DNA of 64,000 nucleotides, taken from IMG/VR virus record IMGVR_UViG_3300004244_000010, positions 7,322 through 71,321 of that record. One strand, given 5' to 3'. Each line of letters begins with the position of its first letter. The first letter of the stretch is position 1. Below the pieces are notes generated by a model. The model had not been told where the DNA came from. It did no database searches and worked only from the letters and a program-made list of their open reading frames with translations. Source of the stretch: a virus (Duplodnaviria; Caudoviricetes). Positions 15,711 through 46,741 of this stretch are shown piece by piece. A program made the position numbers and the translations under genes.

Positions 15711-15725
15711 TGCCATCCTTGGCAC
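15711..15725 (-). promoter_or_regulatory. Late-leader element copy 1 (GTGCCAAGGATGGCA)
   Basis: 34 nt upstream of the darB ATG, just after the upstream stop. Confidence 0.8.
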
Positions 15726-15735
15726 GCTTACCGTG

Positions 15736-17361
15736 TCACTTGACGGGCTCCCAGCCGCCCTCGCGCCAGGTCATCTTCCCCTTCGGCGTGTCATAGACCT
15801 GCCCGACCTTGCGCTGGTCCGCCGGCGGCACCTGGGCCGCAGCTGGCGCCGCAGCACCAGGATGAGCATTCCACCGGTTTCCGGTTTTCGTGTAGCCCAT
15901 GTTGGCCATCACCTCGTCGGCCGCCTTCACGGCGTCGGCCGGCTTGGCCATGTTCTTGATGCCGGCGGCCACGAACTCCTTGTGCATTTCCTCGGGCGCC
16001 TGGCTCTTCTTCGTCACAGCCATTTCAAGGGCCGAGCGCATGTCGGGCGCCATGCCAGCCTGAAGCATGGCTGTGGCCAGCTTGACCTCTGCCGGCTGCT
16101 CCTTGCCCATGCCCAGCCCGCCCTGGATTGCGGTGAGCCTTTCCTGGATAGCCTGGCGCTCCTGCGTAGTCGCTGCGTTGCCGAGCGCCAGTTGCATGGT
16201 GGCCACCGTGGACTTCAGATCACGCTGCGGCGCTTCAGCGGCAAACTCAGCTGCAGTGCGCACCTCAGCACGGCCAGCGCGCGCTTCGGCGCTGCCGGCG
16301 CGAGCATCTGCGCGCAGTGCCAGCGTGTTGCGGAATTCGTTCTGGCTGTAGTTGTAGATGGCCATCGGATCCTTGAAGGTGGCCAGCGCAGAAACAAGCT
16401 GGCCGGTGTCCTTCATTACCGTGCTGGGCATCTTGCGGCCGTCCAGCGTCTCGCGCTCGATCACGATCGAACCATCCTTGCCGCGCTTCACATCGGAGAC
16501 CTTGGCGCCATCAGGCACGTACTTGTTGTAGAACTCCTTCACCGAGTCCAGGTCGCCAGCCGCCAGCGCCGCGGCGGTCTTGCCGAGCGCCTGGTTGCGC
16601 TGCTCGGTTTCAAGCTGGATCTTGACCAGTGACTGCGCGGAGAAGTCCTTCATGACCTGCCCAGCCTGCTCCAGTTTGCCGGCCTCGGTCAGCTTGGCTG
16701 CGCGGAACTGGGTGGCCGCCAGGTGGTCATCCACCGCGGCCGCGCGCTCGGTGCCGTCCGGGTTCTTCAGCCGGCCCTTGAACCATTCCCCGACCTGGCT
16801 ATCGACATCGCGCATCAGGTTTGCATCGGCCTCGGCTTGATCTCCGGCGCGCTGCTCGCGCCCGGCCCTGGCTTCTTCCCATCCGAACCGCTTGTCGTCG
16901 CGCTCCGCCTGGGTCACATCGCGCATCATGCGAATGCCTTGCTGTGGGTCGGTCTTCATCAGCACGCCGGCCATGGCGCGCTGGCGCGCGCTGTTCACTT
17001 GGCCCTCGTTCATTGCGCCGGCGCTGCGCTGGCCCATAAAGTCGGTCACACCCTGCTGCGCAATGCGCGCCGCGGGCGCGACCTGCAACTGGCCATCGGC
17101 ACCCTGCACCTGGAAGTTGGACTTGACGGTGTAGCTGCCGTCCGGCGCAGCCTCAAGGGTGTAGAGCGGATTGCCCTGCTCATCCTTGGCGTTGGCGATC
17201 GCCTCCAGCTGCTTGCCGTCATCGGCCGTGAATCCCTGGGACTCTTCCGGCTTGGCGTTGGCGACCTTGGCCAGCTCGAAGTCCTGGCCTACCCGACCCA
17301 CCGTGTCGTAGGTCTGATTGAAGGCCTTGATGAAATCGAGAACTCCGCTCCTGCGTGCCAT
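15736..17361 (-). CDS. Internal virion/ejection protein (541 aa)
   Basis: Ala/Gln-rich helical protein between the ICA-domain protein and darB, the usual podovirus position. Confidence 0.75.
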   Translation of the reverse strand: MARRSGVLDFIKAFNQTYDTVGRVGQDFELAKVANAKPEESQGFTADDGKQLEAIANAKDEQGNPLYTLEAAPDGSYTVKSNFQVQGADGQLQVAPAARIAQQGVTDFMGQRSAGAMNEGQVNSARQRAMAGVLMKTDPQQGIRMMRDVTQAERDDKRFGWEEARAGREQRAGDQAEADANLMRDVDSQVGEWFKGRLKNPDGTERAAAVDDHLAATQFRAAKLTEAGKLEQAGQVMKDFSAQSLVKIQLETEQRNQALGKTAAALAAGDLDSVKEFYNKYVPDGAKVSDVKRGKDGSIVIERETLDGRKMPSTVMKDTGQLVSALATFKDPMAIYNYSQNEFRNTLALRADARAGSAEARAGRAEVRTAAEFAAEAPQRDLKSTVATMQLALGNAATTQERQAIQERLTAIQGGLGMGKEQPAEVKLATAMLQAGMAPDMRSALEMAVTKKSQAPEEMHKEFVAAGIKNMAKPADAVKAADEVMANMGYTKTGNRWNAHPGAAAPAAAQVPPADQRKVGQVYDTPKGKMTWREGGWEPVK

Positions 17362-17362
17362 A

Positions 17363-18484
17363 TCAGGCCTCCACCATTTCGAGGCCCAGAAGGCCGTAGT
17401 TCACCCGATCGAAGCCGTCCGCGCTGCGCTGCACGGCCGCCGGGAACAGCTTGCGCACCTCGTCGGCCATCACGCCGATAAAACGGCGCGCGGGGTCGAA
17501 CACATAGGCGAAGCGGTAGAGGTTCAGACCGGTGTTGGCATCGTGGCCCACGAGCTCGATCTGATCCTTCAGCCGGCGGTCGCTCATGAACAGCGGCGCC
17601 ACCTTGGCTGCACCCGCCGCCAGGCCACCAATGCCACCAAGGATGGATCCAAGGCCCTCGCCCTGGTTCGCCTGGTCCTGCCCGTTCTTGTATTGCGCCT
17701 GGGCACCGAACATGCCGGTCGCGTTCCCGCCCATCTGAGACGCGATCTGGGCGGCTGAGGTGGTCCCAGAATTGATGCCCGCCACGCCCGTGTTGGCGAT
17801 GTTGATGCCGTTGGCCGCGAACTGGGCCGCCGATCCGGTGGCGCCCGCGCTCATGGCCGGGTAGCCGGCCAGCGCATTCACGGCTCGATCGGTCAGCGCG
17901 CGGCCTTCCATGCGCGCGGCGGTGCGGGCGCTGTTGGCGCCGCCGGCCAGGGCCACGGCCTGCGCCGTCTTCATCTGCCCATCCATCGCCGCGAAGCGGC
18001 CGGAGTTGGGATTCACGCCCATGCGCGCCAGGTTGCGCGCCGATTGCCCGCGCGCGCTGGAGAACCCCTGATTCACATCGGCCATGGCCTGGCCGGCGAG
18101 TTCTTCCTGACGCTGCTCAGTGTTGAACGTCTTCGCGTCGCTCACCAGCTGGTCCTGCGCGCCGGAAAGCTGATCGCGGCGCGTCAGCATCCACTGGCGA
18201 TCGGACATGGCCTGTTCATTGGCCGTCTTGGCTGCATCCAGGCCGAACTGCATCTGCTCCTTCTGCAGCGGCATCAGCTCTTCCGAGTTGGCCAGGATCT
18301 TCTGAATCGAGGCGTCCTGGATCCCCATCGACTTGATCTGTGCTTCGACCAGGCGCGGGTCCGGCGCCGGCGCGCTGCTGCCGCCCTTGCTACCCTCCAT
18401 CGTCATCGGGCCGAAGCGCCCGGCGCGCGGCCGAAACGCCAGCTCGGGCAGCAAGTCCCATTCGGTGGTGTGAAACCTAGACAT
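17363..18484 (-). CDS. Ejection/pilot-like protein with C-terminal Peptidase_S74 (ICA) domain
   Basis: GSKGGSSAPAPDP N-terminal motif; glycine zipper; C-terminal MSDRRLK...GVMADEV...VNY. Confidence 0.8.
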   Translation of the reverse strand: MSRFHTTEWDLLPELAFRPRAGRFGPMTMEGSKGGSSAPAPDPRLVEAQIKSMGIQDASIQKILANSEELMPLQKEQMQFGLDAAKTANEQAMSDRQWMLTRRDQLSGAQDQLVSDAKTFNTEQRQEELAGQAMADVNQGFSSARGQSARNLARMGVNPNSGRFAAMDGQMKTAQAVALAGGANSARTAARMEGRALTDRAVNALAGYPAMSAGATGSAAQFAANGINIANTGVAGINSGTTSAAQIASQMGGNATGMFGAQAQYKNGQDQANQGEGLGSILGGIGGLAAGAAKVAPLFMSDRRLKDQIELVGHDANTGLNLYRFAYVFDPARRFIGVMADEVRKLFPAAVQRSADGFDRVNYGLLGLEMVEA

Positions 18485-18890
18485 ACCTGCACTCCTTGCG
18501 CCGCATTCGATACACGATCACGTCGCCACCGTCAGGCGCCGCACCTTCGAGCCGGGCTTCCTCCTTGAACCCCAGGTGCTCATCAAAAGCACGAGCCTGC
18601 TGATTGCTCGCGTTCACATAGCCGCTCAGCCGATCCACCCTGCAGATCTCGAAGGCGTAGGTGAAGCACGCCTTCAGGAAGGTCCGCGTGAGCCAACGGC
18701 CGCCTTGCGCCGCGGCCACATGGATCCACATGTTCTTGCCGTTGAAACCCTCGAAGACCACGCCGGCAATCAGCGCGCCGCGGCGCTCCAGCCCGATCGC
18801 ACGCATGCCATCGGCCCGGGAGAATCCGGGCAGATGGTTCTGGACAAATGCCAGAACGGGCTCCAAATCGAACACCAGACGGTCGGCCAT
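18477..18890 (-). CDS. Phage GNAT-family acetyltransferase-like protein
   Basis: GVVFEGFNG, WLTRTFL, NQQARAFDEHLGFKEEA. Confidence 0.85.
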   Translation of the reverse strand: MADRLVFDLEPVLAFVQNHLPGFSRADGMRAIGLERRGALIAGVVFEGFNGKNMWIHVAAAQGGRWLTRTFLKACFTYAFEICRVDRLSGYVNASNQQARAFDEHLGFKEEARLEGAAPDGGDVIVYRMRRKECRYV

Positions 18891-18904
18891 ATGCCGGCCG
18901 ATGC

Positions 18905-18919
18905 TGCCATCCTTGGCAC
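18905..18919 (-). promoter_or_regulatory. Late-leader element copy 2
   Basis: GTGCCAAGGATGGCA, 14 nt upstream of the GNAT ATG. Confidence 0.8.
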
Positions 18920-18931
18920 CAGATCTTGGGG

Positions 18932-19165
18932 TCAACGCAGAGCTGGCGGGAGCTGCCGTCGCTCCATTTCCGACAGGTAGGCTTGGTAGCAGTGGTCGAC
19001 CTGCCAGAAGAACATGAAATTGATCATGTGCCGGAAGAACCCAAGCGGCTTTCCCTGCGAATACATCCGGTGCGCGTAACTGCTCAGCGTCTCATCCGGG
19101 AATCCCCCGCACAGCGCGGTCGCCAGTTGGTCGATCGCAATCAACAGGTTCAGCAGGTAATTCAT
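18932..19165 (-). CDS. Conserved phage hypothetical protein
   Basis: IAIDQL..ALCGG.PDETLSS...DHC motif seen in phage tail regions. Confidence 0.8.
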   Translation of the reverse strand: MNYLLNLLIAIDQLATALCGGFPDETLSSYAHRMYSQGKPLGFFRHMINFMFFWQVDHCYQAYLSEMERRQLPPALR

Positions 19166-19180
19166 GTGGTCCCTCCCGTG

Positions 19181-20915: not shown

Positions 20916-20917
20916 GG

Positions 20918-21889: not shown

Positions 21890-21890
21890 A

Positions 21891-22349: not shown

Positions 22350-22351
22350 GC

Positions 22352-24955: not shown

Positions 24956-24956
24956 A

Positions 24957-25819: not shown

Positions 25820-25842
25820 GGCATTTCTTGGGTGGTTTGAAA

Positions 25843-26526: not shown

Positions 26527-26529
26527 GGG

Positions 26530-27147: not shown

Positions 27148-27158
27148 GGCTCAGCCGA

Positions 27159-27533: not shown

Positions 27534-27547
27534 GATGTTGGTCCTAA

Positions 27548-27580
27548 GAAAAAGGGGGAAGCTGCTAGGCCTCCCCCTTC
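27548..27580 (-). terminator. Rho-independent terminator after the capsid/cement genes
   Basis: G-run/C-run stem followed by a T-run on the minus strand. Confidence 0.6.
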
Positions 27581-29274: not shown

Positions 29275-29303
29275 AGAAATACTCCTTCAGTTTTGACTTG
29301 AAA

Positions 29304-29319
29304 GAGCACTCCTGCGCTC
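29304..29319 (-). promoter_or_regulatory. Second GGA-loop hairpin in the capsid leader
   Basis: GAGCGC-AGGA-GTGCTC on the coding strand. Confidence 0.55.
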
Positions 29320-29343
29320 GAAGCTAGATACAGACGGCTTGAT

Positions 29344-29559
29344 TCAGCCGGCAGTTAATTGCGCCATCCTTGGCACGACTTGCGCAATATCTTGTTCACC
29401 GTCCTGAGACAGTTTTGTGATCTTCATGGCGCGCGGCGCGCAGATGCGCAGCCGCGCGGCCTGACCGCTCTTGTGCACCAGCTCGACCGTCACATCACCC
29501 ACGGCCAAGATCTCGCTCGGCCGCAGTTGGATGGTCAGTTTTGAGCAGTCCCCAGGCAT
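29344..29559 (-). CDS. csrA: CsrA/RsmA-like RNA-binding protein (divergent)
   Basis: LTIQLRPSEILAVGD-VTVELVHKSGQAARLRICAPRAMKITK aligns with E. coli CsrA 2-44 (~13 identities by eye, R44 to K); TGATG coupling to the scaffold gene. Confidence 0.75.
   Translation of the reverse strand: MPGDCSKLTIQLRPSEILAVGDVTVELVHKSGQAARLRICAPRAMKITKLSQDGEQDIAQVVPRMAQLTAG
29362..29376 (-). promoter_or_regulatory. Late-leader element copy 3 (inside the csrA 3' end)
   Basis: GTGCCAAGGATGGCG, 87 nt upstream of the capsid ATG. Confidence 0.8.
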
Positions 29560-30521
29560 CACGAACCTGCCGCGTACTTCTCACGTTGGGCCGGCGTCAT
29601 GCGCGCGATCGCATCTTCCAGATCGGTACCGTTCAGACGATCGAGGTGTGCGAATTCACCAGCGACATCGCCGGGTCCATCGCCGCCAGGCACCTGGGCC
29701 AGCGTCGCAGGGGCGTCAGCCACGGCCGGCTTGCGGCGAGCCAGCGCGGCATCCTTGGCTGACGGGGCCGGCGCAGGAGTTGGCGAAGGAGCGGGGGCAG
29801 CGGGGGCGGCCGCGCCGCGGAACGCCTGCACGCGCTTATGGGCCTCAGCCACAAACCATTTGGCGTCCTTGTCCTCGTTCGACTCATCCGCGCCCAATGC
29901 GCGCAGGAACATGTTGAACTCGGACAGCGCTTTGGCATCGGCGCGATAGTTGATGCCGCCCTGCTCGGCCGGCGTGCCCGACACATCATCCAGTGCTTGG
30001 TTGAACTGGAATTCGACGCTCTGGCGCGTCATGTCCTGCGAGATCTCGGCCTTGATGCGCAGCGAATCGAGCTCGCGGCGCTCCGACTCCACCCCGCGGA
30101 GGTCGGCCTGCAGCTGGGCACGGTCGATGTCGCCGGCCTCGAAGCGGGTCCAGGCGGCAGTCTCGCGCTCGCCCAAGGCAGTCACCTTGGTTTCGAAGTC
30201 GGCGGGGAGCTCGGCCACGTAGGCGGGGGCTCGGGCAGGCGCGGGCGATGCGGCCGGAGGCGTCGCCGGTGTGGGGGACCCGGCAGGCGCAGCAGCGGCA
30301 GCATCTGCGGTGGCAGCTGCGTCGGCTGCCTTTGCTGTGTCTGCAGCTTCGGTGGAAGTGGTGTCGTCGTCGACCCCATCATCATCCTCGCCGTCTTCGT
30401 CATCGCTGCCCGCAATGTTGCGCAGCGCGTCAATTTCAGCCTGGGTCGGTGCGCCATCTTCGATGGCAGCGCGCTCTTCCGGGGTCAGCAACTCCAGTGC
30501 TTGGGCGTCGAGAGAACTCAT
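29559..30521 (-). CDS. Putative capsid scaffolding protein
   Basis: Acidic, Ala/Pro-rich, helical; C-terminal EDAIARMTPAQREKY; upstream of the capsid gene. Confidence 0.75.
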   Translation of the reverse strand: MSSLDAQALELLTPEERAAIEDGAPTQAEIDALRNIAGSDDEDGEDDDGVDDDTTSTEAADTAKAADAAATADAAAAAPAGSPTPATPPAASPAPARAPAYVAELPADFETKVTALGERETAAWTRFEAGDIDRAQLQADLRGVESERRELDSLRIKAEISQDMTRQSVEFQFNQALDDVSGTPAEQGGINYRADAKALSEFNMFLRALGADESNEDKDAKWFVAEAHKRVQAFRGAAAPAAPAPSPTPAPAPSAKDAALARRKPAVADAPATLAQVPGGDGPGDVAGEFAHLDRLNGTDLEDAIARMTPAQREKYAAGS

Positions 30522-30545
30522 GCTCTTTCCTTGGTCGGTGGTGGA

Positions 30546-30734
30546 TTAATCGTCCTTGCCTTCGCTGGCGATCGACGCCAGGCCCAGCAGCTTCTGTTTG
30601 GCGAGCGCCTGCACCTTAGCCAGCCGCTTCGGATCCTTCTCGATCTCTTCGCAGCGCTGCATGGTGCGCAGATCGTCTTCGACCTGCCAGTCGTCTTCGC
30701 TCTTGGTCGATGCGATGGTGTTGCCTTTGGCCAT
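30546..30734 (-). CDS. Small conserved phage protein
   Basis: DWQVEDDLRTMQRCEEIEKDPKRL; GGAG SD; start reassigned to 30734. Confidence 0.75.
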   Translation of the reverse strand: MAKGNTIASTKSEDDWQVEDDLRTMQRCEEIEKDPKRLAKVQALAKQKLLGLASIASEGKDD

Positions 30735-30739
30735 GAGAT

Positions 30740-31213
30740 CTACTCCAGTGGTGTGGTGTCGGAATCTGCCACCCTTGGCACGTCCGTAGGCCAAGCCTCG
30801 ATCAGCGTTCTGACATCGGAGACGTGTCGCCCAGCCTTTTCCGCCAGCTCGCCATATCGCGCTGCGCACTGATCGAATACGTCTCGGAAGGCTCCAACTC
30901 GCTCAAGGCAGGCCGCGTGGGATTGCTCGGACACTCGCACCGCATCGGCAGATGTGTCGCGCAGCCGGTCGCGCTCAGTGCGCAGATCATCAGCAGCCCG
31001 ACGTAACTTGCCCTCGCGAGCGCGCGCCGCGGCGACGGCATTTGAGGCTTGAACATGACTTGCCCTTTCGGCTTTGAGGACGTGGCGAACCTGCTCCACC
31101 TGGTCTTCGGCCGCCTGGCCCATGATCGCGGCGATACGCCAGTCCTGGACTTTCCAGGCGGAAGCGCCAGCGATCAGCGCGCCGATCAGGAAGGCAAGCA
31201 GCAGCTCTTTCAT
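30740..31213 (-). CDS. Rz-like i-spanin
   Basis: N-terminal TM, W.VQDWR, coiled coil; contains an embedded lipoprotein gene. Confidence 0.8.
   Translation of the reverse strand: MKELLLAFLIGALIAGASAWKVQDWRIAAIMGQAAEDQVEQVRHVLKAERASHVQASNAVAAARAREGKLRRAADDLRTERDRLRDTSADAVRVSEQSHAACLERVGAFRDVFDQCAARYGELAEKAGRHVSDVRTLIEAWPTDVPRVADSDTTPLE
30767..30781 (-). promoter_or_regulatory. Late-leader element copy 4 (variant AGGG loop)
   Basis: GTGCCAAGGGTGGCA, 32 nt upstream of ATG 30734. Confidence 0.75.
30802..31056 (-). CDS. Rz1-like o-spanin lipoprotein embedded in Rz
   Basis: Lipobox LSATGC, Pro-rich mature part, fully nested in another frame. Confidence 0.75.
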   Translation of the reverse strand: MFKPQMPSPRRALARASYVGLLMICALSATGCATHLPMRCECPSNPTRPALSELEPSETYSISAQRDMASWRKRLGDTSPMSER

Positions 31214-31225
31214 GGATGCGGAGCC

Positions 31226-31240
31226 TGCCATCCTTGGCAC
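31226..31240 (-). promoter_or_regulatory. Late-leader element copy 5
   Basis: GTGCCAAGGATGGCA, 12 nt upstream of the Rz ATG. Confidence 0.8.
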
Positions 31241-31244
31241 GTTG

Positions 31245-31520
31245 TCACGCGCGCGCGGTTGGGATAGTGACCAGCCTTTTGCCACGGTGATACAGCAGCG
31301 TCTCGACGCGGAACTGGTCGCGCAGCAGGATCGCCACGTCACGCCAGTCGTTCACGCTCAGCTGCCGCCCATCGAGGCGGGACGCGGCGTGCACATAGGC
31401 CAGCGAGTCTCCCAGCAGTTCGGCTTGCGCAGAGGCAAGGAATGGCAGCTTCTCGGCATAGCCGCCGGGCAACTCGAATCCGCGAAGCGTCAGGCTGGTG
31501 ATCTGGGCATGCCAGTGCAT
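31245..31520 (-). CDS. Phage hypothetical protein (91 aa)
   Basis: ATG at 31520 just after the upstream stop; protein-like composition. Confidence 0.6.
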   Translation of the reverse strand: MHWHAQITSLTLRGFELPGGYAEKLPFLASAQAELLGDSLAYVHAASRLDGRQLSVNDWRDVAILLRDQFRVETLLYHRGKRLVTIPTARA

Positions 31521-31530
31521 CGCTCTGCCC

Positions 31531-32007
31531 CTAAGCAGCTGCCAGGATGATGGCCAGGATGGAGGCGTCGTCTTCGCCGGCCTGGGCGCGATATTCCTGC
31601 CGCTCGGCCATGCGTTCTGCTGGCAACGGAAGACCCGCGGAAGCGGGCGGGTCGGTCCGCGCAAGCGCCGCAGCTTGGGCCGCTGACGCGGCTGGTGCTG
31701 GTGTTGATGGTGTAACGATCGGCCTGCGCGCCGCGGCCGCACGCCGCTTGTCGTCCTGCTGCTGGCGCAGCCGAAGCTCGACAAAATCCCAGGCCGCCCT
31801 GACCTCTTCCGTGCTCAGTTGCTGGCGTAGCGCCGGTGCCTGGAATTCCTTGCGGGCTTGGTACGGGCCGCGCCCCTTACCGCTGCCGTACACCTGCTGC
31901 TGGCGCTGCTCTTCTTCCAGCCAGGCGATCAGGCCCTGCACGGCCAGGGAGATCGGGCTCAGCTTGAAGCCGAAGCCCTGCAGCGCGATGGCGCGGAGGT
32001 TAAGCAC
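31531..32007 (-). CDS. Phage hypothetical protein
   Basis: Overlaps the upstream stop. Confidence 0.65.
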   Translation of the reverse strand: MLNLRAIALQGFGFKLSPISLAVQGLIAWLEEEQRQQQVYGSGKGRGPYQARKEFQAPALRQQLSTEEVRAAWDFVELRLRQQQDDKRRAAAARRPIVTPSTPAPAASAAQAAALARTDPPASAGLPLPAERMAERQEYRAQAGEDDASILAIILAAA

Positions 32008-32530
32008 GGGTCACCGTCACGGCGCCGCCGGACTCCACCACGGTCTGCACAATGCCGCCAGCGGAGCGCTCAGTTGGAGAAACCACCAGCGGCGCGCCTG
32101 GCACCAGGCCGTGGATCTTGGCAAGCTCGCTCATGCGCTGCAGCTCAGTCGCCAGTTCGGTGCGCACGGCCGCGGCTACCTCAGCCGCGCTAGCGCCGCC
32201 AGAACCACCAACGCTGGTGACTGCATAGGCCGCCGACTGCGTGCGGTCGACGTAGCAACCGGCCACCGGGTTGATGGTCGCCTTAAGATTCCCGCCCTTC
32301 ACTTCAAAGCTGCCGGGCGGGAACTGCAGCGTCCAACCATTGATAAACGCGATCGCTGGGAAGTAAGCCCCACCACCCAGGTCGATCTGCTTGTAGGTGT
32401 GGATCACCGGATACACCATCGCCTCGGGGTTGTCCTCGATGTCTCGCAGGGCGGCGTGAAAGGCCACCATGTCGGTGATGCTGGCGTCCGAGTGGATCGT
32501 CAGCGTGGCGAAGTTCGGCGTCAGGGCCAT
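32000..32530 (-). CDS. Tail fibre-associated protein
   Basis: Coupled to 32530-34035; FINGWTLQF motif. Confidence 0.7.
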   Translation of the reverse strand: MALTPNFATLTIHSDASITDMVAFHAALRDIEDNPEAMVYPVIHTYKQIDLGGGAYFPAIAFINGWTLQFPPGSFEVKGGNLKATINPVAGCYVDRTQSAAYAVTSVGGSGGASAAEVAAAVRTELATELQRMSELAKIHGLVPGAPLVVSPTERSAGGIVQTVVESGGAVTVTRA

Positions 32531-34035
32531 TACTCGTCCGCGTTGCGCACCGCCGTACCGGATCCGCCCGCGCTGGTCACGCTCAGCGTGGACTCGAACG
32601 GAACGATGGAAGGCGTGCTGCCCTTGCGCACCTTGAAGCGGCAGGTGAAGGCAGAGCCAAACTGGAAGTTGGCCGACTGCATGCTGGCACCCGCGGATAC
32701 CCCGTCAATGAACGGGATGAACGCCGGCAGGCCCGAGGCATAGCCGCCTGCCGGGACTGCGGGAGACAGGCCGCTGATCACGTTGCCGGCGCGCGCCGTA
32801 TAGGTGTGGCGGTTTCCGTTGATGCGGATGTAGCAGGTCTGCGAGCCCGGCGCCGTGGGTGTGTCCGCAGGGGCTGCAGTGAGCGTCACGGAGGTAGCGC
32901 CCGCCGTGGCCGTAGCCGCCAGCGTGGTGTCGTTGGCGAAGCCCCCGGCGCCATTGTCACGCGCCGCCAGCACATAGTCGCCGCTGGCCACACCCGTGAC
33001 CTGCACGGCCACGCTGGTGGGAGGCGTCTCGACCACGCCGGTATGGCTGATGAGTTGATAGGCCTTGGAGTCGCCGGCCTGCACTCCGGTAAGCCACCAG
33101 CCTTGCGCCACGAACCACTTGCCGCCCGCGAAGGTGCCGAACGGGGCCGCGAGGTTCTCGGGGTAGGCCTGGCCGGGCAGGACTCGGTAGCGCCAGCCTG
33201 GCACGCTGTTGAAGGTGATCGTGCTCGACTCGCTGCAGGCCCACATCAGGGCCTGGTAGGCCTGCAGCACCGTGATCGTGCCGTCCAGCGTGATGGTGGC
33301 CTTGTGCAGCAGTGAGCCGGCGCCGCCACCCAGGTCTTGCGTGTTATCGCCGTAGGCCAGGGTGATCTTCTGCGTGCCGGGCGTGGCCGTCCCGCCGATA
33401 GCCGTGCTGAAGTAGCTGGCCGCCACGGCGGGCGTGATAGTGCCGGTGTCGATATTCCCATCCACCGAGGTGCTCAGGGCCGCCACCTGCTCGCCGCCAG
33501 GGCTCAGGTCCACGTCGAAGTGGCTGTAGCTCTGGCCATACTTGCGGCTGTAGACCGTGATGTCCTTCAGCGTCGTGTCGCCGGCGCCGCCCTTGGCCTT
33601 GACCAGGATCTGGAAGCTGGAGGCGTCAGCGTCCGCCCAGTACTTCGTGATCTTCGCGCCATTCTGGAAAATGTAGATCGGGCTGCTAGCTACCAGCGAG
33701 CCCAGCACCTTCAAGCCTGTGTACAGCACGTCGCCGCCGGCCTGCTCGATGGAGCCGAACTTGAACCATTGCGCGGTGGCGTCGTTGATGTTGACGCCGT
33801 TCAGCAGCGTTAGCGCCATCGGGCGCACCGTGTTGCGCTTACCTGCCAGCTCAGACGGGTTGGCACCAAGGATCGAGACGAGATCATCGCCCGTTGGGGA
33901 GGCGTCGTCAGCGAGATCCTGTGCCCACTGGTGGAGGGCCAGCGTGGTGTACCGAGCGCTAGTGCCCGGCACAAAGGCCGCCGCCTGGCGCAAGTTACCG
34001 CTGGAGTCGATGCTGAAATCTGAACCGATGGCCAT
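32530..34035 (-). CDS. Tail fibre/virion structural protein (501 aa)
   Basis: Gly/Ala/Thr-rich beta protein in the tail-fibre block. Confidence 0.75.
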   Translation of the reverse strand: MAIGSDFSIDSSGNLRQAAAFVPGTSARYTTLALHQWAQDLADDASPTGDDLVSILGANPSELAGKRNTVRPMALTLLNGVNINDATAQWFKFGSIEQAGGDVLYTGLKVLGSLVASSPIYIFQNGAKITKYWADADASSFQILVKAKGGAGDTTLKDITVYSRKYGQSYSHFDVDLSPGGEQVAALSTSVDGNIDTGTITPAVAASYFSTAIGGTATPGTQKITLAYGDNTQDLGGGAGSLLHKATITLDGTITVLQAYQALMWACSESSTITFNSVPGWRYRVLPGQAYPENLAAPFGTFAGGKWFVAQGWWLTGVQAGDSKAYQLISHTGVVETPPTSVAVQVTGVASGDYVLAARDNGAGGFANDTTLAATATAGATSVTLTAAPADTPTAPGSQTCYIRINGNRHTYTARAGNVISGLSPAVPAGGYASGLPAFIPFIDGVSAGASMQSANFQFGSAFTCRFKVRKGSTPSIVPFESTLSVTSAGGSGTAVRNADE

Positions 34036-34040
34036 GGTGC

Positions 34041-34436
34041 TTACTCGTCCGGGATTTGTGAAACGTAGATCGACTGGCTTCCGACGAAGGCCGTCGCCAG
34101 GGTCTGGTAGGGGATGTAGTACGGCGCTGAACTAGCCTTGCGCACCTTGACGCGAAGGTCATTGCCGGCGTTTCCGGCAGCGTAGGTGGGCACCGTGAAC
34201 ACCTCAGTGCTGCTCGCAGCAGTGCGGTTCTCGATGGTGGTTCCGGTCTGCGTCTCCACCTGGATCGCGGAGCCGGTAACCAGATTGGTCAGCGTCAGCG
34301 TGAAGCTGCCGATACTCTCTGTAGAGAGGCGCATGCGGCCGATGGCCGAATTGCCCGCGGCGCGCAGGCCCGGCAGGTCCGATACCATCACGGCGCTGCG
34401 CGCCAGGCCGAAGCAGGAATCAAAGATCGCACTCAT
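34041..34436 (-). CDS. Tail fibre-associated protein
   Basis: Coupled ORF; VRVRKAS...Y.PY...SIYVSQIPD is similar to the C-terminus of the 501-aa protein. Confidence 0.7.
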   Translation of the reverse strand: MSAIFDSCFGLARSAVMVSDLPGLRAAGNSAIGRMRLSTESIGSFTLTLTNLVTGSAIQVETQTGTTIENRTAASSTEVFTVPTYAAGNAGNDLRVKVRKASSAPYYIPYQTLATAFVGSQSIYVSQIPDE

Positions 34437-36358
34437 GTGATCGCGATCTCCGGGTTGAGCGAGAAAGCTGCCGTCGAGCCTCCAGGGAGGGAGCGGTCGA
34501 TCACAAGACGCACGTTCATGATGGTGTTCAGCTTCACCTGCTTGGCAGTCGTGCCAGACACCTTGCGCGGCACCCAGGTGCTGTACGCCCCGCCTGCGTT
34601 CGTCCAGCTGGCCGACGACGTGGCAAGCGACACCGGCACACGCTCAGAGACGGGTGCGCCCGTCTCATCGATGTACTGCAGCTCCACCGTGCCGAACAGC
34701 GGCAGATTGGTCAGCGAGAGCGAGTCCAGCAGCAGCTCGACAGACCAGCTGCGCGCCCCGGTGGTGAGCCGCGATTGCATGCGCGTTGCGGGCAACGCCC
34801 ACGGCTGGCTCGGGCTGATGACGGCCGAGGCGTTGGTCCAGTACGCCAGCCACGCCCAGGGCGTGCCATCAGGAGCGACGGAACTCAACACCGGCTGGCC
34901 GGCGTTCCACTCCACGTACCCCGACCGCGACTCAAACTTTGCCGAGCCCCCGATGCCGAGGTTGTCGAACACAAGATAGGCGGGGTTCTGCCCCACCGTG
35001 GTGTTGACCAAGCCCACCGCGCCAGCTGGCAGTCCTGCGCCCTTGTTGTTTTCAAAGAGCAGCGTTGATCCAGCGCCGAGGGTTACACCGGGCGCGTACA
35101 GGGTCAGGTCGCCCGGCTGACCGGCAGAGAACGTATTGCCGCGCGCCGTGAGTTGGAGCGCCGTGCCTGTTGTCGATGTTTTTACAACAGGCACCGTGAA
35201 CGCGCCACCACCCACGCCTGTAAGGTTCCAGCGAACGTCGTTGCCAATCAGAGTCGTAGTGTAAATTTTGGCGTCGAACAGGGAAGCAACGATGTTCGTA
35301 CGCGGCACTGCCGTGAAGTCGAACAGGCAATCTACGCACGACAGGCTGTATCGGGACGAGCTGCCCGGTGCCCAAAACGCGAAGCAACTTGTGGCGTAGC
35401 TGCCCGTCTTTTCGATGAACTCGACCTTCTCGTAGCTGGCCCCCCAGGCTGTACTGCCGCCGTCATACCCCCATGTAAGCGGCAAGCTGCTGCCGCCGCT
35501 GTTGATGTAGAACTTGACGGTGAACGCGCCCCGGACCTTGGCCTTGATGCTGTGGTACATGCCCGCCACCGACAGGGTGACATAGCCCGCGCCGTTGGCA
35601 GTCCAGTCCAGCGTCAGCTTGGACGACGACCCGTCCCCTGTCCAGATCGTGCCGTCGTCCATCAGCATGTTGATGTACGCGGGCTTGTTGGCCTGCGGGG
35701 AGATGTTGGCCGTGCCCGTCACGAGCGTGGTGTTGCGCCCCGTCCGTACATTCAGGATGTCATGCTCCGTGAACGTGAAGCCCGAGTACCGCACCATGGG
35801 GGACGCGACGAACAAGCCGTAGGTCAGCGCGGTGATGCTGTTCGACACGCCGATGGCCGCCGTGTTCAGGAACCAGCCCCAGCATCCCCCCGCGCCGCCC
35901 GCAAACTGTGTCAGCGTGGGCGAGCCGGTGAAAGTCGTTGCGATGGCCGCGCTGGTGTTGTTGGCGTAGTTCAGCGTCGCCGAACCGACGCGCATCATGA
36001 TCTGGCAGGTACCGGCCGGTGCGCCGCCGCCGGGGCCACGCGCGAACACCAGATTGCGCAGCTGCGGCGTGCCGACGGCCACGCCCGATGCCACGGCGGT
36101 GCTCGTCGCGTTGATGTTCGTAGCCAGGGCGTTGGCCGCCGCATCGGCGCTGGCTGCGCCGATCACGCTGGTGGTGCTGACGCTCACACCGCAGACGCTG
36201 ATGGTGCCGCTGGTCGGAACAGCCGTCATCAGGATAGAGCCGATGGACGCGGCCGACGCGGCTGCGCTGGCCGCTCCATCGCCCTCTTGCGGGGTGCCCC
36301 AGGTTGGCGTGGCGCCGATGTTGGTGGCGTAGGCGCCGTGGTCTAGGTAGCTATCCAT
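34433..36358 (-). CDS. Tail fibre/tailspike (probable receptor-binding protein, 641 aa)
   Basis: Beta-rich G/S/T/N composition; locally more A/T-rich DNA. Confidence 0.75.
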   Translation of the reverse strand: MDSYLDHGAYATNIGATPTWGTPQEGDGAASAAASAASIGSILMTAVPTSGTISVCGVSVSTTSVIGAASADAAANALATNINATSTAVASGVAVGTPQLRNLVFARGPGGGAPAGTCQIMMRVGSATLNYANNTSAAIATTFTGSPTLTQFAGGAGGCWGWFLNTAAIGVSNSITALTYGLFVASPMVRYSGFTFTEHDILNVRTGRNTTLVTGTANISPQANKPAYINMLMDDGTIWTGDGSSSKLTLDWTANGAGYVTLSVAGMYHSIKAKVRGAFTVKFYINSGGSSLPLTWGYDGGSTAWGASYEKVEFIEKTGSYATSCFAFWAPGSSSRYSLSCVDCLFDFTAVPRTNIVASLFDAKIYTTTLIGNDVRWNLTGVGGGAFTVPVVKTSTTGTALQLTARGNTFSAGQPGDLTLYAPGVTLGAGSTLLFENNKGAGLPAGAVGLVNTTVGQNPAYLVFDNLGIGGSAKFESRSGYVEWNAGQPVLSSVAPDGTPWAWLAYWTNASAVISPSQPWALPATRMQSRLTTGARSWSVELLLDSLSLTNLPLFGTVELQYIDETGAPVSERVPVSLATSSASWTNAGGAYSTWVPRKVSGTTAKQVKLNTIMNVRLVIDRSLPGGSTAAFSLNPEIAIT

Positions 36359-36360
36359 CG

Positions 36361-36747
36361 TCAGCTCTGCAGGATCTGCGCAGCGCGCTCAGGAGAGAAG
36401 AATTCCGTCACGCCGGCAACGGTGCGTGGGTCGTCAAGGTCCACACTCGTCCCGTCCGCTTCAGGCGTTGCCCAGTCCAGCAGCTTGATGAACTTGAGCA
36501 CTGGGATGTTCGTCAGCGACGCTTCCAGCAGCGCATCGAACTCAGCCTCGGTGAACCGACCGATGAACGACAGCTTGCTCAGGCGCCGCTGGGGCGTGAT
36601 GACCTCTGGGGGCGTGATGACCTCTGGGGGCGCCAGCGTGTGGTCGTGCGTGGCGAACTCCCAGCCGTTCCACTCGATGGGGGCCTCGGCCTGGTAGCGG
36701 TAGACCTCGGCGCCGTCGCTCTTGCGGGTCACGATGTAGGTGCTCAT
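36361..36747 (-). CDS. Tail fibre assembly-like protein
   Basis: RLSKLSFIGRFTEAE...VDLDDPRTVAGV; ATGA overlap with the portal stop. Confidence 0.7.
   Translation of the reverse strand: MSTYIVTRKSDGAEVYRYQAEAPIEWNGWEFATHDHTLAPPEVITPPEVITPQRRLSKLSFIGRFTEAEFDALLEASLTNIPVLKFIKLLDWATPEADGTSVDLDDPRTVAGVTEFFSPERAAQILQS
36591..36626. repeat. 18-bp in-frame tandem duplication (PPEVIT x2)
   Basis: GGGGCGTGATGACCTCTG at 36591 and 36609. Confidence 0.9.
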
Positions 36748-39323
36748 GCCTTCTTGCCCTCACCGGTGGCTGGAGACTCCACGACATCGGCGCCCGTCAC
36801 CTTGCCGTTCTCGTCGTGCTTCAGCTCGATGGTCTTCTTGACCTCGCCGCTCTTGGCATCTACGGTCACGTTCAGCGTGATCGGGGCGGCCGGCGGCGCG
36901 GCGACGGGCGCCGGCGCCGGTGCGGGGGCTAGCGGCGCAGGCGCGGGATCGGCCTTCTTCGCAGCTTCCGCGGCGATCTTTTCTTCCAGCACACGTTGCA
37001 TGTCCTCGATGCGCTTCTCCAGGGCCTGCACGCGCTTATCGCTGGCTGCGTGGATCTCGGCCACGCGCAGCTTGGTATCGCGGTCGATGTTGGCGAGCTC
37101 GTGCTTGACATCCGCGTCCCTGTTGATCTGCAGGGTGCGGTTTGCGAGCTCGCTCTGGGCCTTGGAAAGCTGGGCGCTCAGCGACTCGATCTGCGTGGCC
37201 GCCTGCTCCTGCACCTGGCGCAGGGCCTGCTCCATTTCAGCAGGCATGCCGCCGGACGAGTCAGCCATGCCGGCGGCCATCGCCTCGGATTCCATCTTGG
37301 CGGCCTTGGCGTTGATCTCGCGCACCTTGGCGCGCTGTTCTTCGAGCGCAGTGATGGCGGATTCGCGCTGCATCTGCAGGGCCTCGGCCTGCTGCTGCAT
37401 TTGCTGCTCGATCTGCAGGGCTTCCTCGGGCGTCGGCTCCTTGTTGGGGTCGCGCTCGCCGGTGAGCTTACGGATCTGCTCGGCGATCTCGTCCTTGTTG
37501 GGCAGGTCCGAGAACTCCATGGCGATGGTCATCATGCGCAGGGCGATCTCGGGCGGGTACTTCACCGCCATGTTGTTCAGGCTGTCGAACATCACCTGGC
37601 GCAGCGTGCCGCTGTAGTCCTGCTCGGCCACCTGGAAATCCGCCTGGCTGGCGGTGATGTCGTTCAGGAAGCGGACCGATCCATCCGGCATCTGCTCGGG
37701 CTGGTTGATCTTGATCCACTCCAGCGCGCCCTTGGTGCCAGTGAGGCGGATCACCTTGGCGTCCGTGTACCACTGCTCCGACAGGCTGAGCTGCTTTTCG
37801 CCCTGCACCTGCGTGGCGAAGCGCAGATTGTCGAATGGCTCGGTGGTGACCACGGATCCCTGAAGCTGGCGCGCCTTGATGGCCTCTCCGCTCACCGCAT
37901 TGGTCTGGCGGCCCATGTTCTCCTGGGCCACGCCAGCGCTCTTCTGGATGCTCTGGCCGTCCAGCGTCATCATCTGGATCTGGCCCGTTGCGCCATCGGT
38001 GTCGCGCCGGATCACGAACTCCTTGCCGGGCTTCTTGATGATCAGGCCATCAGGCCGGTCGGCCTCATCGCGCGCGATGTTCCAGTCAGCCACCGCGCCT
38101 TCGTCGGCAATGATCTGGTTCGAGTTCAGCAGGAACAGCGCCTTGCTGGCGCGCTTGTTCAGGTCGATCTGCACATCGCGCACGCGGCGGATCACGCCAT
38201 AGGGCAGGCGATCGCGGCCGCGGCGGTAGCACCACACCGGCGTAAGGCTGAAGCGGTTGTGGCGGTTGATGCTGGGGTTCAGGGCCAGCATGTGCGTCTC
38301 GGTGAACACCGCCACATGCGTGCGCATCAGCACCTTGTCCACGATCGTCGCGCCCTCGCGCGCCACAGCATCGCCCAGCATGTGGTCGCGCGGGCCGAGG
38401 ATGGAGCCGCGGAAGGATCCATCGCTCACTACCTTGACCCGGGCCGGCTTGCGGTACTGGCCCTCTATCAGCTTCACGCGCGGCCGGTGCGCATCGATGG
38501 CCAGGCCGGAGCCCATGGCGCGCAGCGTGCCGCTCCGGTCCTTCGAGTTGGCATCCAGGCCGGTCACCCAGGTGTCTTCCTCTTCGTTATTGTCGGTCGT
38601 GTAGGCCGTGTCTTCGGCGGCCTGGCGGATCTCGTTCTCGCGGTCGGGGAACATCAGCACAGCGATGTCCACGTCCACCCAGCGCCAGCGGAACAGGTAG
38701 CGCGCGTCGCTGAGATCGAGCTCGTAGCTCATCGAGTCCCACAGCACATTGCGCCAGTCCTCGTACTTGCTGTAGAGGATGTCCTGCGTCGGGTCGTCGC
38801 GCACCCCGTCATCCAGCCAGCCCACGCCCGACTTGACGGCATCGGCGAACGCGCGCGAGCGGTTGAACTGCACGCGGTTGATGTCGCTGATGTACTTCAG
38901 CACCTTGGTCTTGATGTCGGCCATCTGCACGTCGTCTTCCGACCTTGGCAGAACCCGCCAGTCCACGCGCGTGCGGCGCTCGGTGCCGATGATCCAGTCG
39001 CACATCGGCGCAACCTCGTTGTAGACCAGCGGCATCTGGCCGCGGTCCTTCACGATCTGGGCATCCTCGGGATCCCACTGCAGGTTGTCGTACATGTCCG
39101 CGTCCATCGCCATGTCCAGGCGGTTGGCGGACTGGCGCTCGCGCTCCAGGTAGTACCAGGAGAGCAGCTGCCGGTGCTCGCGGCGCGCCTCGTCGCTGTC
39201 CAATGGGTGGGCCTTGGTCGTGGCCACCGCGGTGCCGGCTTGGCGCAGCTTTTCATCGAGCGACTGGCTGTACTGGTCGCCGGGCGCCTTGCCGCGAATT
39301 GGGCGAACGTCCAGCTCATTCAT
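36744..39323 (-). CDS. Portal protein (P22/933W-like) with long C-terminal coiled coil
   Basis: YDNLQW...RGQMPLVYN...SGVGW...RDVQIDLNKRASK...SGEAIKARQ. Confidence 0.92.
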   Translation of the reverse strand: MNELDVRPIRGKAPGDQYSQSLDEKLRQAGTAVATTKAHPLDSDEARREHRQLLSWYYLERERQSANRLDMAMDADMYDNLQWDPEDAQIVKDRGQMPLVYNEVAPMCDWIIGTERRTRVDWRVLPRSEDDVQMADIKTKVLKYISDINRVQFNRSRAFADAVKSGVGWLDDGVRDDPTQDILYSKYEDWRNVLWDSMSYELDLSDARYLFRWRWVDVDIAVLMFPDRENEIRQAAEDTAYTTDNNEEEDTWVTGLDANSKDRSGTLRAMGSGLAIDAHRPRVKLIEGQYRKPARVKVVSDGSFRGSILGPRDHMLGDAVAREGATIVDKVLMRTHVAVFTETHMLALNPSINRHNRFSLTPVWCYRRGRDRLPYGVIRRVRDVQIDLNKRASKALFLLNSNQIIADEGAVADWNIARDEADRPDGLIIKKPGKEFVIRRDTDGATGQIQMMTLDGQSIQKSAGVAQENMGRQTNAVSGEAIKARQLQGSVVTTEPFDNLRFATQVQGEKQLSLSEQWYTDAKVIRLTGTKGALEWIKINQPEQMPDGSVRFLNDITASQADFQVAEQDYSGTLRQVMFDSLNNMAVKYPPEIALRMMTIAMEFSDLPNKDEIAEQIRKLTGERDPNKEPTPEEALQIEQQMQQQAEALQMQRESAITALEEQRAKVREINAKAAKMESEAMAAGMADSSGGMPAEMEQALRQVQEQAATQIESLSAQLSKAQSELANRTLQINRDADVKHELANIDRDTKLRVAEIHAASDKRVQALEKRIEDMQRVLEEKIAAEAAKKADPAPAPLAPAPAPAPVAAPPAAPITLNVTVDAKSGEVKKTIELKHDENGKVTGADVVESPATGEGKKA

Positions 39324-39765
39324 ACGCGACGCCCTCGCGCTCCAGGCGGATGTCCTCGCCGCCGATGGCCTTGCCGTCCTCGCGCAGGATCATCTGGCCG
39401 ATCGCGCCGCGCATGTATTCGGGCGGCGGCGCCGAGGGCATGGCGTTGAGCTCGCCCAGCACGTCGGTGACGATATTGACGATGCGTGCCCGGTTGCGCA
39501 GGCTGGGCTCGATACCAAGCATGCTGCAGGCGATGCGCGATTGCTGGTCGGCGTGCGCCATCGCCTCACGGCGCCAGCCTGCGTCGATCGCATTGATGTT
39601 CCAGCGGAAGGCCGCGGAGTCAGCGACGACGAACCAGCCCGCGTCCTTGCGGTGGGCCGGCAGCAGCACCAGGGCGCGCTCATCGTTCACCCAGGTCAGG
39701 ACGGCAACGATGTCACCGTGAACGCGGGAAAGGTGCGCTTTGCGCAGGTCAAGTGATACGCCCAT
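39316..39765 (-). CDS. Conserved phage protein upstream of the portal
   Basis: ATG at 39765; overlaps the portal start. Confidence 0.75.
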   Translation of the reverse strand: MGVSLDLRKAHLSRVHGDIVAVLTWVNDERALVLLPAHRKDAGWFVVADSAAFRWNINAIDAGWRREAMAHADQQSRIACSMLGIEPSLRNRARIVNIVTDVLGELNAMPSAPPPEYMRGAIGQMILREDGKAIGGEDIRLEREGVAYE

Positions 39766-39794
39766 GGCAGCCCCAATCAAGTTGCTGGGGAATC

Positions 39795-39809
39795 TGCCAT
39801 CCTTGGCAC
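39795..39809 (-). promoter_or_regulatory. Late-leader element copy 6
   Basis: GTGCCAAGGATGGCA, 29 nt upstream of ATG 39765. Confidence 0.8.
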
Positions 39810-39878
39810 GTAATTCAGTGTTCGCCGGGGCCTGCGGCAATGCGACCAGTAAGGCGGTCAAGCATTAGCGCCGCAGGC

Positions 39879-39981
39879 CGCGACTACTTACCTAGCCCTG
39901 TTCGGATTCACCTTGGAGGGCACCTCGCCCAATCCCATTCGATCGCCACCGTCAGGGTTACGACCAGGGCTGGCCGTCGCG
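39879..39981 (-). ncRNA. Candidate structured RNA between element copies 7 and 6
   Basis: Nested helices CGCGAC/GTCGCG (39879-84/39976-81) and AGCCCTG/CAGGGCT (39894-900/39965-71), plus inner hairpins. Confidence 0.35.
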
Positions 39982-39995
39982 TGAAACCAAATGCT

Positions 39996-40010
39996 TCCCA
40001 TCCTTGGCAC
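39996..40010 (-). promoter_or_regulatory. Late-leader element copy 7
   Basis: GTGCCAAGGATGGGA, immediately downstream of a terminator. Confidence 0.75.
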
Positions 40011-40042
40011 GGAAAGAAGAAGCCCGGCGCGGGGCCGGGCTT
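40011..40042 (-). terminator. Rho-independent terminator
   Basis: AAGCCCGGC/GCCGGGCTT stem followed by CTTCTTTCC on the minus strand. Confidence 0.7.
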
Positions 40043-40062
40043 GCTGTTAGGGGCGGCCTAGA

Positions 40063-40311
40063 TCAGGTGCCGGCGCCTTCCGGTGCCTCGGTGAAGTCGA
40101 CGTAGAACTGCTTGCCGGGCTTGAACTGTTCGGCCGCAGCAGGGTTCATCGTGCTGAGATCGATGCTGGCGCTGGGCGTCCACTTGAAGAACTCGGCGTT
40201 CTCGGGACTGCCGCTGCTCACCGCCTGCAGCTTGGCGGTCTTGATGCCGCCCTCATGCTCGGTGACAGAGTTGACTTTGAACTTGGCGCGGACGGTCTTG
40301 ATGTCGGACAT
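40063..40311 (-). CDS. Small conserved phage protein
   Basis: VRAKFKV...ENAEFFKWTPSASI...YVDFT. Confidence 0.8.
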   Translation of the reverse strand: MSDIKTVRAKFKVNSVTEHEGGIKTAKLQAVSSGSPENAEFFKWTPSASIDLSTMNPAAAEQFKPGKQFYVDFTEAPEGAGT

Positions 40312-40376
40312 GGGAACTTTCGTGAGGGGTGATGAGAAAGCCCCGCACCGCGGGGCTTCAGGGCGAGATCAGCGAA

Positions 40377-40670
40377 TCAAATCGACGGGCACATGCGCCA
40401 GGTCGGGTGGATCTCCGGACGCTCGCGCTTGATGGTGCGCAGCACGAAGGCACTGGCCCGCTGCAGCTCAACCGCCGGGCGCGTGGCCACGGCGTCGCTG
40501 GCGGCCGGCTGGATGCGCATGGCGGGGTCCACGAAGGGGCGCAACGCGAATTCCTTGGCCGAGCGGCAACGGGTGACGAAGCCGTCGCGCAGCCAGGCGG
40601 CAGCGCTGCAGAACACGGCGGCACAGGCCAGGGCAAGCGACAGGATCACAGAGCGGTGGATCGATTTCAT
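40377..40670 (-). CDS. Phage hypothetical protein with N-terminal hydrophobic segment
   Basis: ORF downstream of element copy 8; AAAGG upstream. Confidence 0.65.
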   Translation of the reverse strand: MKSIHRSVILSLALACAAVFCSAAAWLRDGFVTRCRSAKEFALRPFVDPAMRIQPAASDAVATRPAVELQRASAFVLRTIKRERPEIHPTWRMCPSI

Positions 40671-40713
40671 GTGGTCAGCCTTTCAGCGGTTGGGGGAGGA
40701 AGAGCCGCCACCC

Positions 40714-40728
40714 TGCCATCCTTGGCAC
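40714..40728 (-). promoter_or_regulatory. Late-leader element copy 8
   Basis: GTGCCAAGGATGGCA, 43 nt upstream of ATG 40670. Confidence 0.8.
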
Positions 40729-46740: not shown

Positions 46741-46741
46741 G

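Follow-up and report, generated by a model that had tools for sequence, protein, structure and literature searches.

The window analysed here is a 64,000-nucleotide (nt) stretch (positions 7,322 to 71,321) of the IMG/VR virus record IMGVR_UViG_3300004244_000010; it is a temperate podophage, a distant relative of Burkholderia phage Bcep22, integrated in a Burkholderiales genome. Its late region carries eight co-oriented copies of the 15-mer GTGCCAAGG(A/G)TGG(C/G)(A/G) and a gene of the CsrA family. The initial annotation took the 15-mers for eight UGCC-AAGGAU-GGCA hairpins in RNA, bound by the phage CsrA-like protein in a post-transcriptional late regulon. Here we present a comparison with related prophages, from which the 15-mers are most probably the core of lineage-specific late promoters of this Bcep22-like prophage, and not sites of the CsrA-like protein; the leader of the major capsid mRNA is described as the likelier target of that protein.

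All eight 15-mers were recovered at the positions reported initially, every one on the minus strand, with 0.01 copies expected from shuffled sequences. The search pattern GTGCCAAGGRTGGSR gave eight matches in the window, and the rest of the 71-kb provirus record held no additional copy of the 15-mer. The distances of seven copies to late-gene starts (12-87 nt) were reproduced as well: from the end of the motif to the next start codon they are 12 nt (Rz-like gene, ATG at 31213), 15 nt (GNAT, 18889), 29 nt (gp50-like, 39765), 32 nt (30734), 34 nt (DarB-like, 15676), 43 nt (lipoprotein, 40670) and 87 nt (capsid, 29274). An exact scan of IMG/VR for the 15-mer gave more than 100 single matches, which is the chance level for a collection of that size and thus uninformative.

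Relatives were collected with the capsid protein as query against a single genome of each species, which yielded about 35 Burkholderiales prophages with capsid identities of 63-82%, all of which keep the csrA-like gene. Carriers include Mitsuaria chitosanitabida NBRC 102408 (AGGA type), Hydrogenophaga intermedia S1 (AGCA type) and Acidovorax sp. SDU_ACID1 (CCTGCC type). Together with the copies of the window they define a conserved, asymmetric word of about 20 bp, C-G-T-G-(C/G)-C-A-A-G-(G/C)-A-T-G-G-C-A-nnn-T. Outside the search pattern, a T stands four bases after GGCA in 55 of 58 unique copies, and the three bases in between are not conserved. In an alignment of 72 copies (A3), T12, G13, A16 and T20 are each conserved in at least 90%. 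These positions have the fixed spacing of an extended -10 element, with TG at -15/-14, A at -11 and T at -7. The word is tied to the direction of the genes: across the window and some 40 related loci, 60 exact-core copies lie on the gene strand and none on the other. It is also tied to the prophage, since all eight exact matches in a Mitsuaria genome of 5.8 Mb fall within 24 kb and on one strand. In four prophages (the window and the loci L134, L141 and L142) a canonical intrinsic terminator lies no more than 10 nt before a copy.

The leaders that follow from this placement fall into two classes. In 12 cases the first downstream ATG lies 0-4 nt from the predicted +1, and none of these has a Shine-Dalgarno (SD) sequence; the other ATGs lie at least 18 nt from the predicted +1 and nearly always have one, and no genuine cases were found at 5-17 nt. 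Many leaders start with a stem-loop. At the homologous csrA/capsid position, Bcep22, RPZH6, Itty13 and Parlo have sigma70-type promoters, of the forms TTGTAA-N17-TATAGAAT, TTGCAA...TACTAAAAT and TTGC..-N17-GATAAT.

Within a genome the element recurs in several co-oriented copies, and each genome has a version of its own. The version with an AGGA centre, CAAGGATGGCA, occurs in the window, in Mitsuaria, in Roseateles, in one Limnobacter and in the metagenomic contig L235; the AGGA-type loci are the window, L134, L135, L165 and L235. Most relatives have CAAGCATGGCA, with an AGCA centre, and the position of copy 3 accordingly reads GT..CAAGCATGGCA in most of them, a C replacing the G of the window so that no GGA is present. 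Further versions are CATGCGTGGCA with a TGCG centre (L157, four copies), CAAGCCTGCCA with a CCTG centre (Acidovorax L160, four copies) and CAAGCACRGCA (L148 and L152). The left arm is variable (GTGC, GTGG, GTAC, GCAC, GATA, CCAC, TCGC) and the right arm is fixed; centre and flanks change in concert across the copies within a genome and differ between lineages. As far as these alignments go, the central GGA is a peculiarity of one sub-lineage (G at -17, where most relatives have C) and not a feature of CsrA recognition.

In the proposed mechanism, the 3' half of the word (TG-G-CA-nnn-T) would mimic an extended -10 element and be read by region 2/3 of sigma70 in the host RNA polymerase, and the 5' half (-26 to -16) would stand in for the -35 hexamer. 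The 5' half is presumably read by a phage-encoded factor, because it changes in concert in each genome and differs between lineages. Transcription is predicted to start about 7 nt past the conserved T. The products would be of two kinds, namely leaderless or near-leaderless mRNAs (Rz-like and GNAT; the gp50-like gene in some relatives) and leadered mRNAs with a normal SD, often opening with a 5' stem-loop. The eight copies would thereby split the 25-kb late region into lipoprotein, portal, lysis, scaffold/csrA, capsid/tail and GNAT units and a unit for the giant DarB-like protein.

Binding of the 15-mers by the CsrA-like protein, as initially proposed, has three points in its favour: the window core CAAGGAUG equals the canonical high-affinity consensus of CsrA from selection experiments on RNA ligands (SELEX); a genuine gene of the CsrA fold lies in the same late region; and all copies are on the coding strand. 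The comparison nevertheless makes it very unlikely. GGA is missing from the homologous element in most of the csrA-bearing relatives, where AGCA prevails and TGCG (L157) or CCTG (L160) are also found. The stem does not covary: the covariation score over 72 copies is 0.026, compared with a mean of 0.031 for shuffles, and 365 of 500 shuffles equalled or exceeded it. A single compensatory cell was counted, every one of the three outer pairs is broken in 20-25 of 63 distinct copies, and the two arms of the L160 element lack complementarity altogether. Even in the window the hairpin holds only for part of the copies, as a full stem is impossible for copies 3 (GGCG) and 7 (GGGA) and copy 4 has GGG in place of GGA. 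The check on co-occurrence that had been suggested speaks the same way, with csrA-bearing phages that lack the 15-mer motif (Bcep22, RPZH6, PEp14, SopranoGao, Itty13 and Parlo) and no column in the alignment of the CsrA-like proteins that separates AGGA-type from AGCA-type genomes, i.e., no residue that tracks the G/C switch. Furthermore, three target genes of the window have no SD to occlude, one copy directly follows a terminator, and the motif precedes the predicted +1 and ends 12-87 nt before the starts, so that it is not a neighbour of the ribosome-binding site in the manner of a CsrA target.

The initial annotation had offered as its alternative a late-promoter or activator site in DNA, formed by the palindrome TGCCA-N4-TGGCA. 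The promoter is supported by the comparative data and the palindrome is not, since the element is asymmetric; in the aligned copies, conservation follows neither an RNA hairpin nor a DNA palindrome. Partial dyad symmetry in about 60% of the copies, and the co-occurrence of a MarR-type winged-helix early protein with the motif, would suit a DNA operator or a pause/recruitment site that is no promoter, either bound by a dimeric winged-helix repressor at TGCCA-N4-TGGCA or acting as an antiterminator site of the ops or qut kind. We consider this improbable: the dyad is not maintained, being absent from L160, L145/L149 and L157, and such a site leaves the conservation of T-7, the bimodal leader lengths and the copies behind terminators unexplained. 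Processing of RNA at the motif, with an endoribonuclease cutting a few nt downstream and thus making leaderless or short-leader mRNAs, would likewise account for the fixed short distance to an ATG without SD and fits the strict strand bias. It appears hardly more probable than CsrA binding, however, as the conserved bases are spaced like TG, A-11 and T-7 in a -10 element, copies that directly follow intrinsic terminators leave little RNA to process, and isolated relatives carry ordinary promoters at the same place.

Several observations weigh against late promoters all the same. Standard sigma70 promoters have T at -12 and an A/T-rich hexamer; here -12 is C in at least 90% of the copies and -10 to -8 are G+C-rich, and the word is therefore filed as a phage-specific variant. 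No -35 consensus was found in the copies, and with C at -12 and no -35 hexamer the host sigma70 alone is expected to use the sites poorly. Searches of 50 window proteins against Pfam and PHROGs turned up no RNA polymerase of the phage, no sigma factor and none of the known late activators. Two promoter positions differ in copy 7. Finally, the match of the core to the CsrA consensus stands, and read-through transcripts from upstream promoters would carry the motif, so that incidental binding by the CsrA-like protein may occur in this sub-lineage. A sigma54 promoter (TGGCAC-N5-TTGCW) was tried and rejected, because placing the GC of TGGCA at -12 puts GT, not GG, at -24/-25; on the opposite strand TTGGCAC has no TTGC downstream and faces away from the genes.

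A phylogenetic profile singled out one protein of the early operon as a possible reader of the 5' half. The gene at 46742-47110 encodes 122 amino acids (aa), and its structure model is a winged helix of the MarR/ArsR type. Of 14 motif-bearing genomes searched, 13 encode it, as do three independently found motif-bearing contigs; neither Bcep22 nor any of the 50,697 phage records has it. The gene usually adjoins the replication gene, and the co-occurrence lies within one lineage. As a promoter-specificity factor, the protein is a candidate by this co-occurrence, and a rather doubtful one. A Glu/Lys difference before the recognition helix, considered as a residue tracking the AGGA and AGCA types, was rejected, as the AGGA-type contig L235 (protein P0031) carries Lys. 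In Acidovorax (L160:1888-2322), the MarR-like gene lies directly before a gene similar to that of the small terminase subunit (TerS), and its end falls within the first variant promoter, located in the last 25 nt of the MarR-like gene; this layout resembles Q and PR' of phage lambda.

In several relatives, tandem pairs of the putative promoter spaced 22-35 nt apart are found at the csrA end before the capsid leader. The Mitsuaria relative has three extra copies (G001:C45:20102, 21606 and 23087) upstream of TerS and the large terminase subunit (TerL), whereas no copy precedes TerL in the window; close relatives differ in where early transcription units give way to late ones.

The gene at 29344-29562 is a genuine, divergent member of the CsrA family, in agreement with the initial annotation. 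The window protein alone scored 17.3 bits against Pfam CsrA (PF02599; E 0.0048, below the gathering score of 27), and 18 of 32 family members match that family, the best with E 3.4e-8. A profile of the 32 members retrieved seven CsrA/RsmE sequences from the PDB (E 1e-6 to 3e-5) and nothing else significant. The AlphaFold model, with a predicted local distance difference test score of 78 overall and 89-94 across the core, shows the five-stranded beta structure of the CsrA fold, and the top 14 Foldseek matches in the PDB are all CsrA, RsmA or RsmE (root-mean-square deviation 0.8-1.3 Å over about 45 columns, E only 0.007-0.06). Regarding the RNA-contact positions, R44 is K in the window and R or K in relatives and the equivalent of R7 is kept; T5 is replaced by D/Q, R6 by V/L and H43 by E/T. 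The coupling to the upstream gene (a TGATG overlap) and the presence of copy 3 within the gene were likewise confirmed. The conserved C-terminus of the CsrA-like proteins (VPSMA/VPRMA, alignment A1) is encoded by the promoter word and is therefore conserved through the DNA signal and not for the sake of the protein.

By tblastn, 33 of 41 related loci have a homologue immediately before the capsid gene, and a hidden Markov model (HMM) of the family adds four. The same place is occupied in Bcep22, RPZH6, PEp14, SopranoGao, Parlo and Itty13, where GenBank labels the gene CsrA-like. The csrA-like gene is a core gene of the phage lineage, and its place immediately before the capsid gene is constant. 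None was detectable by tblastn or the family HMM in the Chitinimonas prophages (L163 and L164). Phage csrA genes as such are known, including Bcep22 gp54, JC1 gp47, those of PEp14, SopranoGao, Parlo and Itty13, and PTXU04 gp28 (PMC7366521, PMC9144972, PMC11879866). In these papers, the phage CsrA is treated as a moron or a host-manipulating regulator of unknown role, and the role is explicitly called untested; a knock-down of csrA in PTXU04 led to smaller plaques (PMC11879866).

Every csrA-bearing phage sampled has a capsid leader of about 100 nt with a block of the form GCGC-A(N)GA(N)-GUGC; leader and block are both missing from four csrA-less phages whose capsids belong to the same family. 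The GGA hairpin and the GGA-containing SD that the initial annotation had noted in the capsid leader of the window are both present, and the GGA element is conserved in the leader. The loop is not invariably GGA, as A(N)GA(N) reads AAGAC or AUGAC in other lineages. In the window, the block GAGCGC-AGGA-GUGCUC occurs once. Some changes at the outer pairs of the local hairpin are compensatory. In predicted folds, the block and its flanks pair with SD, spacer and AUG through complementarity that is specific to each lineage, such as GGAUGUGC with GCACAUCC in Bcep22, CAUGAGUGC with GCACUCAUG in PBC5 and GCGCUGC with GCAGCGC in Itty13. The predicted pairing probability of the SD in the window is 1.0, compared with 0.58 for shuffles; across capsid leaders SD occlusion is 0.72 versus 0.57 in shuffled leaders (p = 6e-4). 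It was not seen in the enterobacterial and Pseudomonas group (PEp14, SopranoGao, Itty13, Parlo and RPZH6) and is not claimed to be universal. The Chitinimonas loci have a block-like GC hairpin and are a possible exception to the co-occurrence of block and csrA.

CsrA can activate translation by opening a hairpin that sequesters the SD, as in ymdA of E. coli. Acting on the block, the phage CsrA-like protein would free or lock the ribosome-binding site and so set capsid translation. That it does act there is a suggestion drawn from one evolutionary co-occurrence, to which we assign slightly less than an even chance. The CsrA-like protein, a core component of Bcep22-, Gervaise-, Lasta-, Pavtok-, Parlo- and Itty-like podophages, may be a dedicated translational switch of the major capsid gene, acting on a leader block that rivals, or has a part in, the occlusion of the ribosome-binding site. 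The joint proposal, that a Burkholderiales prophage lineage swapped its sigma70 late promoters for a new class (box plus TGnCAnnnT, often leaderless) read by a phage factor and that the CsrA-like protein is a capsid switch, is advanced tentatively, as somewhat less likely than not.

The CsrA-consensus match of the 15-mers would be a coincidence of one sub-lineage and illustrates how much the reading of a single genome can mislead when its relatives are not consulted. A late-promoter signal defined by comparison permits the annotation of transcription units in widespread uncultured Burkholderiales prophages, and, through its predicted starts, speaks for late mRNAs without leaders in a proteobacterial phage. 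The capsid mRNA leader offers a concrete candidate target for a phage-encoded CsrA; if the switch is real, it would be the first function and target assigned to a phage CsrA. The features discussed are listed in Table 1.

Table 1. Coordinates of the putative late promoters, the csrA/capsid region and associated features (positions in the window unless a locus is given)
Feature	Position	Strand	Remarks
Putative late promoter, copy 8	40710-40729	-	Spans -26 to -7; predicted +1 about 7 nt downstream
Lipoprotein gene (target of copy 8)	40377-40670	-	33-nt leader with SD
Intrinsic terminator	40020-40042	-	9-bp GC stem and T-tract; ends copy-8 unit, directly upstream of copy 7
Copy 7, deviant	39992-40011 (15-mer 39996-40010)	-	GGGA for GGCA; T at -6, not -7
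Putative late promoter, copy 6	39791-39810	-	Would serve gp50-like gene 39316-39765, portal gene 36744-39323 and downstream genes
Putative late promoter, copy 5	31222-31241	-	Rz-like ATG (31213) 2 nt from predicted +1, no SD; leaderless type
Putative late promoter, copy 4 (GGG variant)	30763-30782	-	Leader with GGAG SD
Predicted copy-4 unit	30546-30734, 29559-30521, csrA	-	62-aa gene, then gp52-like putative scaffold gene, then csrA
Putative late promoter, copy 3	29358-29377	-	Inside 3' end of csrA-like gene (encodes VPRMA); would serve capsid gene
Putative late promoter, copy 2	18901-18920	-	GNAT ATG (18889) 4 nt from predicted +1, no SD
Putative late promoter, copy 1	15707-15726	-	Would serve 4,482-aa DarB-like protein gene 2228-15676
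Divergent CsrA-family gene	29344-29562	-	72 aa; ATG at 29559 overlaps upstream stop (TGATG)
Capsid-leader block GAGCGC-AGGA-GUGCUC	29304-29319	-	Local hairpin, or long-range pairing with SD, spacer and AUG
Capsid SD (AAGGAG, 29282-29287), spacer and ATG (29272-29274)	29272-29287	-	Completely base-paired with the block in the structure prediction
Major capsid protein gene	28123-29274	-	PF13252, E 3.5e-62
MarR/ArsR-type winged-helix protein gene, early operon	46742-47110	-	122 aa (called as 110 aa)
Tandem copies in relatives	L138:9888-9930; L151:9888-9930; L127:3385-3439; L128:2526-2579

Regarding individual copies, copy 6 is followed by a 5' stem-loop immediately after the predicted +1, and the 24-nt leader of copy 1 holds a stem-loop and no SD. 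Copy 7 is possibly weak or vestigial. It was correctly described in the initial annotation as lying behind a terminator, a strong intrinsic one at 40042-40020; from there to copy 6, about 186 nt (39811-39991 on the minus strand) contain no obvious gene and could be a vestigial promoter with spacer, or a small late RNA.

The capsid protein of the window is 45% identical to that of Bcep22. The early operon on the minus strand is of lambdoid type, with a Cro-like helix-turn-helix protein, a ribbon-helix-helix protein (47071-47337), two small winged-helix proteins and a replication initiator, and is followed on the same strand by a RusA-like resolvase, TerS and TerL. A 95-aa protein encoded at 46453-46740 also belongs to the early genes. 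The late genes are ordered portal, lysis, putative scaffold, csrA-like, capsid, tail genes, GNAT and the DarB-like polyvalent protein; family matches of the latter are limited to ParB-like, SNF2/helicase and methylase. The plus strand carries cI-like, recombination and integrase genes with a tRNA at the end, which is the single match in an Rfam scan of the window. Plus-strand open reading frames (ORFs) at 46574-47104 and 47147-47590 were rejected as genes, being antisense artefacts of real minus-strand genes.

The tyrosine-integrase gene at 54060-55088 (PF00589) lies well within the prophage; a second integrase candidate is a 424-aa ORF at 61167-62441, which adjoins the tRNA (62538-62622) at the prophage edge. 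Between portal and Rz (31245-36747, minus strand) there are genes for 128, 641, 131, 501, 176 and about 179 aa that matched neither Pfam nor PHROG families and are without counterpart in the five relatives compared, including the closest (Mitsuaria); the block looks like a lineage-specific insertion in the morphogenesis module. A related metagenomic phage (L234:9059-11530) encodes an 823-aa large terminase with Hint and LAGLIDADG homing-endonuclease domains, and an intein is therefore present.

Regarding known systems, the family of the gene at 29344-29562 shares sequence and fold with CsrA/RsmA/RsmE (PF02599), and the capsid leader resembles dual-site CsrA targets in that about 30 nt separate a GGA-containing loop from a GGA-containing SD. 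The Bcep22-like phage csrA genes occupy the same place between the gp52-like and the major capsid gene; the consulted parts of the published accounts (PMC7366521, PMC9144972, PMC11879866) do not describe the capsid-leader element or a target. Whereas CsrA is a global regulator, the phage gene is dedicated to one place in the virion module.

The promoter word is comparable to two other systems. The middle promoters of phage T4 combine a MotA box with a sigma70 -10 element TAnnnT, and its late promoters are recognized by gp55 at TATAAATA. Shared with these are a phage-specific box that replaces the -35 element, a minimal -10 element with conserved A-11 and T-7, many co-oriented copies before phage genes, and a signal that is absent from the host genome. 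No homologue of MotA, AsiA or gp55 was found among the window proteins. The box of the window (CGTGCCAAGS) abuts the -10 element at -26 to -16, whereas the T4-type box is centred near -30; C stands at -12 and TG is present, and the phage is temperate with a betaproteobacterial host. Extended -10 (TGn) sigma70 promoters dispense with the -35 element, and the cI mRNA of phage lambda made from PRM is leaderless. TG at -15/-14, A-11, T-7, the missing -35 element and an AUG at or near +1 without SD are common to both, whereas the word described here has C in place of T-12, a G+C-rich middle of the hexamer, and 10 upstream bp that are as conserved as the -10 element and specific to the lineage.

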